Assembly (NCBI RefSeq): GCF_024298765.1
Contig: NZ_CP101210.1
Length of the DNA stretch: 64,000 bases
Source of the DNA: Escherichia coli
GTDB lineage: Bacteria > Pseudomonadota > Gammaproteobacteria > Enterobacterales > Enterobacteriaceae
Strand: one strand, 5' to 3'
The translations under genes and the position numbers were made by a program. A model generated the notes under the pieces. It made no database searches. It saw nothing but the letters and a program-made list of their open reading frames with translations, and was not told the origin of the DNA. Positions 50,544-52,965 of this stretch are shown here, piece after piece. Position 1 is the first letter of the stretch. Each line of letters begins with the position of its first letter.

Positions 50544-52043
50544 TTATCTTCTGTCCGGAAGAATCAGAGGCTGTGGTTTCAGACTGTCTGCCGGTACATT
50601 CCTGTCTCCGTTAAAAACAATAACGGGTTCATTATCTTCGTCTGTCAGCGGATTGAATGGCGGTATATTTTCAGTACGAATGCCGGTCAGCCACTGAAAA
50701 ATACCTGCGAAATGACGGGCACTGATTTTTCTGCTGACGGACTGATGAGACGTGATGTCACTGGCGGTAATAATCAGGGGAACGCTGTAGCCTCCTTGTA
50801 TATGGCCATCATGATGAACAGGATTAGCACTGTCGCTGACCGACAGACCATGGTCAGAAAAGTAAAGCATGGCAAAATGACGGGAGTGCCGGCGAAGGAT
50901 ACCATCAAGCTGACCGAGAAAGTTATCCAGTTTACTGATGCTGGCGAGGTAACAGGCAATCTTTCGGGGATACTGCTCCAGGTAATGATTCGGCCAGGAG
51001 TTAAGTCGGTCACACGGATTCGGATGAGAGCCAATCATGTGCAGGAATATCACCTTCGGAGAGGATTTATCCGCCAGTGCACGTTCTGTTTCCTGTAACA
51101 ACAACATGTCATCCGTTTTACGGGAAGCAAAGCTGCCTTTCTTGAGGAAAACGGTATGCTCCGCATCAGAAGCAATAACAGAGATGCGTGTATCATGCTC
51201 CCCCAGTTTTCCCTGATTGGATATCCACCATGTGCTGTATCCTGCTTTTGCTGCCAGCGCCACCACGTTGTTGCCGGAGTCAGGGTTCTGCTCATAGTCA
51301 TAAATCAGTGTCCGGCTCAGGGAAGGTACGGTACTGGCTGCTGCCGATGTATAGCCGTCAATAAATAAACCGGGAGCCGTATTCAGCCATGGTGTGGTTG
51401 GCACGGGATAGCCATATACCGACATATAATCCCTGCGCACACTCTCACCAGTAACGATAACAATCGTGTCATACAACGGTGTTCCCGGCAGGATTTTCCA
51501 GTTGTCAGCCCCGTGCTGACTCAGTTGTTTATAACGCTGCATTTCACGCAATGTGTCAGTTGTTCCCACAACAATTCCTTTAACCATCCGCAACGGCCAG
51601 CTGTTTACAGAGCATAATACGAACAGCAGCAGTGCCAGCCAGTTACGGTGACCGCGGTGGTGTGTCCGCCAGAAAATCACCATGAATACCAGAATCGCGG
51701 CACTGACCAGAAAATGATAAACAGGAATCATCCCGGTAAACTCTGCAGCCTCATCAGCCGTGGTCTGCAGCAACGCGACAATAAAACTGTTGTTGATTTT
51801 ACCGTACGTCATACCCGCAGGCGCATACAGTGCACAACAGAACAGAAATAACAGCGTTGTAATGGATGTGAGGGTATTTCTGTGTGCAAGGAGCAGAAGG
51901 AGAAACAGAAGCAGCACATTTCCTGTGGCATTCTTCTCAGTGTATCCGCATGCAATTGTGGTTATCACAGAAATAACAAAAAAGAATAAAAACAATAAAA
52001 TCCGGGGTGTGTCGCCCGGACAAAACAGTTTTCTGATATTCAT
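50544..52043 (-). CDS. Phosphoethanolamine-transferase-family membrane protein (N-terminal multi-TM + sulfatase-like catalytic domain)
   Basis: ORF track 499 aa; hydrophobic N-terminal helices; catalytic-domain signature IVIVTGESVRRDYMSVYGYPVPTTPWL typical of the EptA/OpgE/YhbX family. Confidence 0.6.
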   Translation of the reverse strand: MNIRKLFCPGDTPRILLFLFFFVISVITTIACGYTEKNATGNVLLLFLLLLLAHRNTLTSITTLLFLFCCALYAPAGMTYGKINNSFIVALLQTTADEAAEFTGMIPVYHFLVSAAILVFMVIFWRTHHRGHRNWLALLLFVLCSVNSWPLRMVKGIVVGTTDTLREMQRYKQLSQHGADNWKILPGTPLYDTIVIVTGESVRRDYMSVYGYPVPTTPWLNTAPGLFIDGYTSAAASTVPSLSRTLIYDYEQNPDSGNNVVALAAKAGYSTWWISNQGKLGEHDTRISVIASDAEHTVFLKKGSFASRKTDDMLLLQETERALADKSSPKVIFLHMIGSHPNPCDRLNSWPNHYLEQYPRKIACYLASISKLDNFLGQLDGILRRHSRHFAMLYFSDHGLSVSDSANPVHHDGHIQGGYSVPLIITASDITSHQSVSRKISARHFAGIFQWLTGIRTENIPPFNPLTDEDNEPVIVFNGDRNVPADSLKPQPLILPDRR

Positions 52044-52097
52044 CGGAGTATATCGACAACATTATTATGAAGAGAACAGGATAATAAAAATCAGAAA

Positions 52098-52116
52098 TTA
52101 TCTGTAAAACAGATAA
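52098..52116. promoter_or_regulatory. Perfect 8-3-8 palindrome upstream of transferase gene (candidate operator)
   Basis: TTATCTGT-AAA-ACAGATAA about 55 bp upstream of start codon at 52043. Confidence 0.35.
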
Positions 52117-52123
52117 CAGACAA

Positions 52124-52146
52124 CCCTGCAGCAATAGACTGCAGGG
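52124..52146 (-). terminator. Candidate terminator downstream of outer-membrane protein gene
   Basis: CCCTGCAG-(7 nt)-CTGCAGGG stem-loop with T-rich flanks. Confidence 0.45.
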
Positions 52147-52224
52147 TGTTTCTGTTTAATTGCAGAAGATATACAATTATATTAATTACAGAATATTCGT
52201 GATTATCTCTCGGGAACAGTGTTG

Positions 52225-52965
52225 TCAGAAGTTATAAGTCACACCAAGCATGATGTCATGACTTTTAACATCAACTTCTGACTTATATTTATCGCCCCAC
52301 TCGTCCTTGTAACTCACACTGCTGTCACCTGCATCAAGATAGCGATAGCTGAGGTCCAGAGCGATATCCGGGGTTACGTCATAGCGGACACCCGCGCCAA
52401 GGTTCCATGCGAAGTTGTCAGCAGAGCCTGAACGTGACAACGATTCGCGACCACTGCTTCCGTACTCATAATCCCAGGTACTGATACCGGTTGTTTTCTG
52501 GTGAATTCTGGCGTAGCCAATCCCTGCAGATATCCAAGGTGTGAATGCGCTGTCATTCCGGAAGTCATAGTACGCATTCAGCATTAGTGTGTTGACTGAC
52601 ACCTCATTCTTCAGGTCATCACGCCAGTAACCACCTGACCAACTGTCTTTATCTACGTTATACTTCGAATCAGCTTTTCCACGAGCGTAAAACTCCAGTT
52701 CTGTACGAACCGGAATACTGAACTGCGGATAAAAATCATAACCAGCCGCGATACCACCACTGAATACCGTATCATGGTCATCGCCGCCTTTATACTTTGA
52801 CGTTTCTTCCTCATCTCCTGACAGGAAACGCTGGTCTGAAAGTGACACCACAGAGGTACCGGCTTTACCGGTCAGATAAAAACCGCTTTTACCTTCCTCA
52901 GCACCTGCATTTGCTGCAAATACACAGGCTGCGGCCACCACTGAAACAGCAAAAACCTTTTTCAT
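52225..52965 (-). CDS. Outer-membrane beta-barrel protein (porin-like)
   Basis: ORF track 246 aa; signal peptide ending ANA-GAEE; alternating hydrophobic/aromatic strands; C-terminal aromatic residue (..GVTYNF). Confidence 0.6.
   Translation of the reverse strand: MKKVFAVSVVAAACVFAANAGAEEGKSGFYLTGKAGTSVVSLSDQRFLSGDEEETSKYKGGDDHDTVFSGGIAAGYDFYPQFSIPVRTELEFYARGKADSKYNVDKDSWSGGYWRDDLKNEVSVNTLMLNAYYDFRNDSAFTPWISAGIGYARIHQKTTGISTWDYEYGSSGRESLSRSGSADNFAWNLGAGVRYDVTPDIALDLSYRYLDAGDSSVSYKDEWGDKYKSEVDVKSHDIMLGVTYNF

Follow-up and report, generated by a model that had tools for sequence, protein, structure and literature searches.

Introduction

Members of the Hra family of outer-membrane proteins (Hek, Hra1, Hes and Tia) confer heat-resistant haemagglutination, autoaggregation, and heparan-sulfate-proteoglycan-dependent adherence and invasion, acting via long surface loops (PMC5539235, PMC2553418). 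PagN of Salmonella is a more distant relative of this family. Phosphoethanolamine (PEtN) transferases are a second group of envelope-associated proteins relevant here. OpgE (YbiP) transfers PEtN to osmoregulated periplasmic glucans, and Opt/Lpt-O of Shigella flexneri adds PEtN to a surface glycan, the O-antigen (PMC3458804). Here we describe a stretch of an Escherichia coli chromosome (64,000 nt in its entirety, henceforth the window), in which a gene of the Hra family lies beside a gene encoding a putative PEtN transferase, and we compare both with their described relatives.

Results

Two adjacent genes at the integrase end of a pheU island

Both genes are situated at the integrase end of an island inserted at tRNA-Phe (pheU), together with the features listed in Table 1. 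This agrees with the proposal, made in an earlier sequence-only reading of this DNA, that they reside on a mobile island. In strain 135 and in CE10, pheU has dicD/yjdC on one side and the integrase on the other. The tRNA 3' end was not found a second time in the 64,000-nt window, hence the far end of the island lies outside it.

The earlier reading described two adjacent minus-strand genes, one of them encoding an outer-membrane protein (OMP) of 246 aa, and the ORF listing matches this description exactly, coordinates included: both ORFs start with ATG, share a strand, encode 499 and 246 aa, respectively, and are separated by 181 bp. These are real genes and not chance ORFs. Many E. coli chromosomes in RefSeq contain a 100% identical copy of the 3.5-kb segment that holds them, where it is annotated as 'phosphoethanolamine transferase' followed by 'outer membrane protein'. 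An Rfam scan of positions 50300-54300 yielded rli40 (26.7 bits, cutoff 100) and Mu-gpT-DE (22, cutoff 49), which we take as noise.

Table 1. Features of the pheU island within the window (positions are those of the window)
Feature	Position	Strand	Evidence
tRNA-Phe (pheU), island attachment site	44933..45008	+	ARAGORN
P4-type tyrosine integrase	45206..46468	+	Pfam Arm-DNA-bind_3, Phage_int_M, Phage_integrase; annotated as tyrosine-type recombinase/integrase
MkoC, Mokosh type II, SF1 helicase and PLD nuclease	46920..50435	+	PADLOC 1694 bits, protein positions 1-1169, full length; Pfam AAA_11, AAA_12, PLDc_2
Conserved two-gene module: transferase, Hra-family OMP and ~120 bp upstream, 2.5 kb	50540..53083	.	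BLAST block boundaries against EAEC 042 pheV and CE10 pheU
OpgE-like phosphoethanolamine transferase, intact, 499 aa; full-length form of the K-12 pseudogene yjgX	50544..52043	-	Pfam, AF2, Foldseek, BLAST
Sigma-70-like promoter candidate for the transferase, TTTACA-16-TATTAT	52081..52108	-	Consensus scan, 10/12 matches; pattern match only
GC-rich hairpin between hek and transferase, candidate hek terminator	52123..52147	-	10-bp stem; consensus match only
hek allele, Hra-family (Hek/Hra1/Hes/Tia) eight-stranded beta-barrel, 246 aa	52225..52965	-	Sequence identity, AF2, Foldseek

The outer-membrane protein is an allele of hek

The smaller gene had been presented as envelope-modification cargo encoding an outer-membrane beta-barrel. 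While the barrel was confirmed (OMP_b-brl PF13505, E=5.9e-22), its product is no generic envelope protein: by sequence the gene is an allele of hek, of the characterised Hra adhesin/invasin family. It shares at least 94.6% nucleotide identity with hek of RS218, a lower bound given that the reference was read from OCR-noisy supplementary text. At the amino acid level, its product is 90.2% identical to Hra1 of EAEC 042 (the locus as given in PMC5539235), 62.9% identical to Tia of CE10, and 62% identical to a protein cluster that bears the name 'invasion outer membrane protein Tia'. The protein exhibits the features of the family, i.e., a signal peptide, an eight-stranded barrel with long loops and an aromatic last residue (the C-terminus reads ...TYNF). 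In its AF2 model (pLDDT 87.6), a helix at the N-terminus leads into long antiparallel strands, and the top Foldseek matches were NspA, OmpA-TM, Ail and OmpX.

An intact transferase with a complete catalytic set

The larger gene had been assigned to the EptA/OpgE family, with an HMM search proposed as a check. Pfam domains, residue alignment and Foldseek all agree with this assignment. The search detected the Sulfatase domain (PF00884, E=1.3e-36, residues 193-446) as well as EptA_B_N (PF08019, 23.6 bits, cutoff 22.3). Residues 6-154 contain four to five hydrophobic segments, in a pattern like that of OpgE, and the AF2 model (pLDDT 89.3) places helices over residues 12-176. By sequence, the closest solved structure is EcEptC (5zzu, E=1.2e-17, catalytic domain), and Foldseek recovered EcEptC as well (6a82, E=1.3e-19, TM(target) 0.72), also aligning the protein with full-length MCR-1 (9nww) and NmEptA (5fgn). 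The two parts that characterise the superfamily are thus both predicted, namely an N-terminal multi-helix inner-membrane domain and a periplasmic domain of the alkaline-phosphatase/sulfatase fold.

Residues E200, T238, H340, D397 and H398, which do not vary among 43 homologues (H411 hardly does), align with the corresponding residues of EptA, EptB, EptC, OpgE and MCR-1. Together these positions provide the catalytic Thr nucleophile, the Glu/Asp/His metal ligands and the two accessory His of the superfamily. Of the catalytic signature reported earlier, the GESxRxD motif is real (G199-E200-S201...D205) and a TTP is indeed present at 216-218, but the latter does not supply the nucleophile; as judged from the same alignment, the catalytic Thr is T238 (AAS-T-VPS). 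The catalytic Thr or the metal ligands might have been missing, or the gene might have been a pseudogene fragment of a core paralogue; in the alignment all of these residues are conserved, and the window transferase is full length. Taken together, fold, topology and catalytic residues establish, at the level of sequence and structural model, that the protein belongs to the PEtN transferase superfamily (EptA/MCR/OpgE type). Intact alleles display a dN/dS of ~0.15 (0.15-0.17), and by this sequence measure the transferase is under purifying selection.

Relatives of the transferase and its likely acceptor

The closest characterised paralogue in BLAST is OpgE, with 31% identity over 493 aa that include the membrane domain (236 bits), followed by YhbX (105 bits), EptC (94), EptB (55) and EptA (45); identity to EptA/MCR is 21%. 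The transferase is not an OpgE orthologue: the identity is only 31% and the core opgE has a different location (beside ompX in K-12). Instead, it clusters with a clade, at 38-57% identity, whose members are island- or plasmid-borne in E. coli and Salmonella, with distant members (Erwinia, E. lignolyticus) in core-like chromosomal contexts. Our search of the searchable literature retrieved no functional experiment on this clade. Shigella Opt/Lpt-O, considered as the closest relative, was rejected, giving no BLASTP match (E<=1e-3) to the transferase or its clade.

Given that OpgE is the nearest characterised relative and that EptA and MCR are remote, the acceptor is most likely a glycan (a periplasmic glucan or an LPS/surface sugar) and not lipid A, which these comparisons make an unlikely acceptor. 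On the other hand, every E. coli carries a core opgE, such that a second glucan-directed enzyme seems redundant, which argues for a different acceptor.

It had been suggested that the transferase modifies lipid A or the LPS core in the manner of EptA, MCR or CptA, thereby changing susceptibility to polymyxin or cationic peptides. The shared superfamily and full catalytic set are compatible with this, as are the nearest solved structure (the EcEptC catalytic domain) and the highest-scoring NCBIfam model, that of the CptA subfamily. However, this score (107 bits) falls far below the cutoff, and the same holds for all the models concerned: CptA models NF007933 and NF012179 gave 106.7 and 82 bits (cutoffs 404 and 900), the EptA models 38.5 and 56.7 bits (cutoffs 660 and 561) and the MCR models 16-35 bits (cutoffs 1075-1250). 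The full-length match to OpgE outranks those to EptC, EptB and EptA, and roughly one in four complete E. coli genomes carries the gene, unflagged by MCR models. In addition, consensus scans for PhoP and PmrA boxes detected none upstream of the two genes, and the window-wide counts of these boxes were at chance level. We therefore regard an EptA-, MCR- or CptA-like activity as unlikely, and the earlier polymyxin/lipid A proposal as weak for an OpgE-like enzyme.

The transferase and the adhesin form a conserved module

Among 5426 complete E. coli genomes, 1450 (about a quarter) hold a near-full-length transferase and 1753 an Hra-family OMP, the two being adjacent in 1368; that is, ~94% of near-full-length transferase copies (1368/1450) lie beside an Hra-family OMP. 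Any match to the transferase was found in 3050 genomes, more than half of which carry a truncated remnant only, indicating that the gene is frequently lost. The same gene order occurs with Tia (CE10), Hra1 (EAEC 042) and Hes (LAA), and recurs in Salmonella and in metagenome contigs at 56-57% identity for the transferase and 53% for the OMP. Pairing was not found for transferase homologues at <=50% identity, nor for OMP homologues at <=52%. Between the window and CE10 the transferases are 96.8% identical but the OMPs only 62.9%, suggesting that OMP alleles have been swapped independently of the transferase. The pair is common and already annotated pathogenicity-island content, and the adhesin gene is already published.

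As for the region between the genes, the promoter candidate is located downstream of the hairpin, 37 nt upstream of the transferase ATG. RNA folding of the intergenic 131 nt gave -35.2 kcal/mol (z=-4.7), and the hra1 locus retains the hairpin, part of which has been deleted at the tia locus. Since a hairpin and a promoter-like site intervene, hek and the transferase gene are probably transcribed separately.

We consider it quite probable that the pair represents a 'yjgX-hek' module, conserved at the integrase end of tRNA-associated pathogenicity islands in E. coli, which is situated here at pheU and combines a hek adhesin with an intact OpgE-like PEtN transferase. The two genes would travel together as a 2.5-kb unit. 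Judging by its conserved residues, the enzyme would load Thr238 with PEtN taken from phosphatidylethanolamine, at a Zn site predicted to comprise E200, D397 and H398, and would then hand the PEtN from Thr238 to a periplasm-facing acceptor.

Does the transferase serve the adhesin?

The transferase could conceivably be a dedicated partner of the adhesin, either by modifying Hek itself with PEtN (in the way that PptA modifies pilin and C. jejuni EptC modifies FlgG) or by shifting the charge or length of nearby LPS and so unmasking the short barrel loops. Some PEtN transferases are known to act on proteins (PMC10525099), and the related adhesin PagN is masked by LPS O-antigen (PMC2553418); such a role would also suit the ~94% adjacency and a gene order kept down to 56% (transferase) and 53% (OMP) identity. 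However, Hes and Hra1 each suffice for haemagglutination, aggregation and adherence when expressed alone in HB101 (PMC5539235), and Hek expressed from pHek6 does the same in the K-12 strain XL-1 Blue (PMC2553418), yjgX being a pseudogene in K-12. The independent swapping of OMP alleles seen in CE10, the hairpin and separate promoter-like site, and the unpaired state of more distant homologues of either gene all speak against a dedicated partnership, and tight linkage within a 2.5-kb module can account for the co-occurrence with no functional link. We thus hold a dedicated partnership to be most improbable.

A related proposal is that a function exerted on the Hra-family adhesins, or in their service, keeps the transferase beside them; PEtN on the adhesin or on nearby LPS or glucan might then tune how far the heparan-sulfate-binding loops are exposed, or how they are charged, in smooth wild-type strains. 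This strikes us as very doubtful. An effect of this kind would nevertheless escape the published work, which used rough K-12 hosts and a deletion removing both genes. Of note, the hes/hek region has been deleted en bloc, as a 5.5-kb segment (PMC13340028). Deletions of this type also remove the transferase, and phenotypes credited to the adhesin may accordingly be confounded.

The neighbouring Mokosh gene occupies an independent slot

The gene between the integrase and the module encodes a single MkoC protein with helicase and PLD nuclease domains, as expected of Mokosh type II. It belongs to a cassette spanning ~46494-50539, as homology to EAEC 042 stops at 46493 and restarts at 50540, and the slot is variable, being empty in EAEC 042 and occupied by SisA in LAA. 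MkoC is therefore cargo of an independent variable slot outside the conserved pair, and its adjacency is incidental.

The co-carriage of the pair with a defence gene had previously been read as meaningful, which raises the possibility that surface remodelling (e.g., receptor masking) acts with MkoC as anti-phage cargo. Beyond the fact that the pair adjoins a full-length Mokosh type II gene on an integrase island, the evidence opposes this: PADLOC holds no defence model matching the transferase or the OMP, the MkoC cassette has discrete boundaries and the opposite orientation, and the pair has no MkoC beside it in EAEC 042, while in LAA the slot holds SisA. We find a joint anti-phage role scarcely credible, and the significance attached to the co-carriage falls away. 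The view that the transferase has lost its function and is decaying as a mere passenger is almost certainly wrong. Although copies of the K-12 yjgX type, truncated or frameshifted, are commoner than intact ones, the window copy has its full length and keeps all residues that are invariant in the family, and intact alleles retain the low dN/dS.

Returning to the yjgX-hek module, the transferase is not to be read, on present evidence, as a determinant of colistin resistance or phage defence. The intact enzyme of the yjgX type, a putative PEtN transferase, is widespread and under selection, and its acceptor is worth finding.

Comparison with known systems

Like the described Hek, Hra1, Hes and Tia, the window OMP combines a signal peptide of the Hek type with an eight-stranded barrel, and its gene lies on an island beside a P4-type integrase. 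Unlike them, it is encoded by a distinct allele, not identical to the published sequences, and its adhesin activity is predicted; from Tia it differs further, with only 63% identity and differences expected in the surface loops.

On the side of the transferase, OpgE is similar in length and hydropathy pattern and has the same catalytic residues, yet the window enzyme falls in a separate clade and co-exists with the core opgE. EptA/PmrC, MCR-1, EptB and EptC/CptA share its two-domain architecture, Zn/Thr catalytic centre and fold, but the identity is 21-26% and does not extend beyond the catalytic domain, and the window protein scores far below all of the NCBIfam cutoffs. Opt/Lpt-O, encoded on S. 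flexneri plasmid pSFxv_2, is of similar size (506 aa) and also borne by a mobile element, but is annotated as a member of the LTA synthase family. The closest counterpart in K-12 is yjgX (b4575), a pseudogene at the leuX/KpLE2 element, which is 91% identical in nucleotide sequence over window positions 50540-51730 and occupies the same position, following a P4-type integrase. However, yjgX is missing its 5' third, is interrupted by frameshifts and stops and lies next to no OMP gene, whereas the window copy is intact.

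Genomic setting of the pair

The window is chromosomal E. coli DNA in which an island at pheU carries, in order, an integrase gene, the Mokosh type II gene mkoC, a phosphoethanolamine (PEtN) transferase gene and an outer membrane protein (OMP) gene. Two adjacent minus-strand genes had been proposed from the sequence alone, and the ORF listing agreed exactly, each ORF having an ATG start and the two being 181 bp apart. Many RefSeq E. coli chromosomes contain the 3.5 kb that holds both (100% identity), with the labels "phosphoethanolamine transferase" and "outer membrane protein". 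Because the tRNA 3' end occurs only once within the 64-kb window, the island extends past its right end. Further along lies the PhoX phosphatase gene, a phosphate-scavenging cargo that is unusual on an E. coli island. Beyond position 60371 the window no longer follows strain 135, and GC falls sharply to 32.5% at 63001-64000, where an ORF next to IS3/IS66 elements may be another defence gene.

Features of the island and its surroundings
Feature	Coordinates (strand)	Remarks
tRNA-Gly(GCC), three in tandem	14925-15344 (-)	
tRNA-Phe (pheU)	44933-45008	downstream of dsbD-dicD
P4-type integrase	45206-46468	after pheU
MkoC	46920-50435 (+)	1171 aa; helicase + PLD nuclease; PADLOC MkoC model matched end to end, 1694 bits
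Transferase	50544-52043 (-)	499 aa; Pfam Sulfatase E=1.3e-36, residues 193-446; EptA/EptB N-terminal membrane domain, barely over cutoff
OMP	52225-52965 (-)	246 aa; Pfam OMP_b-brl E=5.9e-22; weaker matches to OmpA-TM and Opacity families
IS and pseudogene debris		between OMP and PhoX genes
Frameshifted fragment annotated iron ABC transporter permease	53821-54242 (-)	beside PhoX gene
PhoX-family alkaline phosphatase	54292-56271 (-)	659 aa; TAT signal; Pfam PhoX E=6e-166
ORF	63020-63685 (-)	N-terminus matches AAA_15, AAA_23 and AAA_21 ATPase domains (OLD/Gabija/ABC-ATPase-like)

An OpgE-like transferase

Pfam, alignment and predicted structures bore out the family assignments of the sequence-only reading, namely the PEtN transferase superfamily and an outer-membrane barrel. 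The transferase model (pLDDT 89.3) retrieved with Foldseek the EcEptC catalytic domain (1.3e-19), then full-length MCR-1 and Neisseria EptA, and hydropathy together with the model placed a helical membrane domain at approximately residues 6-176. Alignment with K-12 EptA, EptB, EptC, OpgE and YhbX, and with MCR-1 from the HMMER output, identified the catalytic residues as E200, T238 (the nucleophile), H340, D397, H398 and H410/H411, of which the first five are invariant in a 43-sequence family alignment and H411 nearly so. Of the catalytic signature proposed earlier, the GESxRxD part is real and contains E200, but the "TTP" part (216-218), although conserved, only lies nearby, the catalytic Thr being T238. 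Since these residues are kept and dN/dS among intact alleles is 0.15-0.17, the gene appears to be neither a pseudogene nor catalytically dead. K-12, meanwhile, carries at leuX a 5'-truncated, frameshifted copy (91% nucleotide identity), the pseudogene yjgX.

All NCBIfam scores fell far under the curated cutoffs: CptA 107 against 404, EptA at most 57 bits against at least 561, EptB 50 against 493, and 16-35 for the MCR models, whose cutoffs exceed 1000. Among K-12 paralogues, OpgE ranked first by BLASTP (236 bits; 31% identity across 493 aa, membrane domain included), followed by YhbX (105), EptC (94), EptB (55) and EptA (45 bits), which aligned over the catalytic domain only. The best-supported reading is of an OpgE-like enzyme that would place PEtN onto a periplasm-facing glycan; lipid A would be an unlikely acceptor, and the polymyxin reading is weakly supported.

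Opt/Lpt-O of Shigella, which is mobile, similar in size and transfers PEtN to O-antigen, showed no BLAST similarity and was rejected as the closest relative. PEtN transferases termed "YjgX or YhbX" were noted earlier at pheU, pheV and selC in a survey of STEC islands (PMC6174562); our literature search turned up no experiments on the function of this clade. The OpgE-like clade is also mobile outside Enterobacteriaceae, as a 9.6-kb A. baumannii plasmid carries a 31-33% identical member (L015 3497-4990) beside a RelE/ParE toxin-antitoxin pair.

The OMP gene is a hek allele

The sequence-only reading had counted the OMP as envelope-modification cargo. Its AlphaFold model (pLDDT 87.6) shows long antiparallel strands forming a small barrel, resembling NspA, OmpA-TM, Ail and OmpX in a structure search, and a database cluster labelled "invasion outer membrane protein Tia" is 62% identical to it. 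We compared it with the Hra family (Hra1, Hra2, Hek, Tia and Hes), using the loci and sequences of the LAA paper (PMC5539235). At the protein level, identity is 90.2% with Hra1 from the published EAEC 042 locus and 62.9% with Tia of strain CE10; at the nucleotide level, it reaches at least 94.6% with RS218 hek (a lower bound, the RS218 text being OCR-noisy), against 86% with hes and 66% with hra2. The protein also has the distinctive Hek signal peptide. Relatives are adhesins or invasins that mediate erythrocyte agglutination, autoaggregation and heparan-sulfate proteoglycan binding (PMC5539235, PMC2553418). Given these published activities and the high identity, the gene is, as judged from sequence, hek, a known virulence-associated adhesin rather than generic envelope cargo. 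Taken together, the pair is unremarkable island content that already bears annotation and has in part been published, consisting of hek and the intact form of yjgX.

The pair is a conserved unit, and MkoC is a variable neighbour

Among 5426 complete E. coli genomes, 1450 carry a near-full-length transferase gene and 1753 an Hra-family OMP gene, the two being adjacent in 1368; remaining matches are mostly K-12-type remnants. The OMP gene lies upstream and the transferase gene downstream on one strand, 150-210 bp apart, with Hra1 at pheV in EAEC 042, Tia at pheU in CE10 and Hes in LAA. One Salmonella contig (OMP ~53% identical) and two metagenome contigs keep this order with transferases 56-57% identical. 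Homology blocks stop at 50540 and 53083 in both the EAEC 042 and CE10 comparisons, and these coinciding ends define a 2.5-kb unit.

More distant relatives depart from the pattern: a 47-52% transferase clade has a DUF2569 gene upstream instead of the OMP, a 39-50% clade lies in core-like contexts, and OMP homologues at 33-52% identity have no transferase neighbour. On IncF plasmid pJSWP006_2 (L002 3881-7443) and in locus L020, genes for a DUF2569 membrane protein and a thermonuclease come before the 47-52% clade member; close to the plasmid copy there is also an S6-family serine protease gene, whose annotation says just "S6 family peptidase".

The sequence-only reading had linked the pair to phage receptors through its defence neighbour. 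Homology with EAEC 042 ends at 46493, the integrase end, and returns at 50540, so the MkoC cassette (46494-50539) fills a variable slot, which is ~290 bp and empty in EAEC 042 and is occupied by SisA in the LAA island; in CE10, MkoC accompanies Tia. Neither the transferase nor the OMP corresponds to a PADLOC model. That MkoC lies beside the pair is a coincidence at a cargo hotspot next to the integrase and not evidence of shared function, and the phage-receptor reading is likewise weakly supported. In EAEC 042, the 3' end of the integrase gene recurs as a 215-bp stretch (L003 9604-9818; 80% identical to window 46292-46506) just beyond hra1, so that integrase-end sequence brackets the module, which hints at how it or later cargo was acquired.

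Linkage and function

The very high co-occurrence, its persistence over deep divergence and the published masking of the related adhesin PagN by LPS (PMC2553418) could mean that the transferase is a dedicated partner of the adhesin, a possible but unproven arrangement that we consider very improbable. Four observations speak against it. The coding sequences of Hes and Hra1, cloned by themselves in HB101, were fully active (PMC5539235), as was Hek from plasmid pHek6 in K-12 XL-1 Blue (PMC2553418); K-12 yjgX is defective. Moreover, OMP alleles have been swapped independently of the enzyme (window versus CE10: transferase 96.8%, OMP 62.9%). Between the genes lie a stable GC-rich hairpin (intergenic fold z=-4.7) and then a 10/12 sigma-70-like site, which suggest that hek and the transferase gene are transcribed separately, and a consensus scan found no PhoP or PmrA box upstream of either gene.

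What remains of interest is that an OpgE-like PEtN transferase which is widespread and under selection is nearly always found linked to an Hra-family adhesin. On the core chromosome of K-12 (NC_000913.3 850450-852597), opgE adjoins ompX, another small eight-stranded barrel gene, the two being convergent with 49 bp between stop codons; this echoes the island pairing of OpgE-like enzyme and small barrel adhesin, perhaps by coincidence. In the LAA island of STEC UC4224, the 5,485-bp replacement in the published "hes/sisA" mutant also deletes the PEtN transferase and atoS, and phenotypes assigned to hes or sisA may include the effect of transferase loss (PMC13340028).
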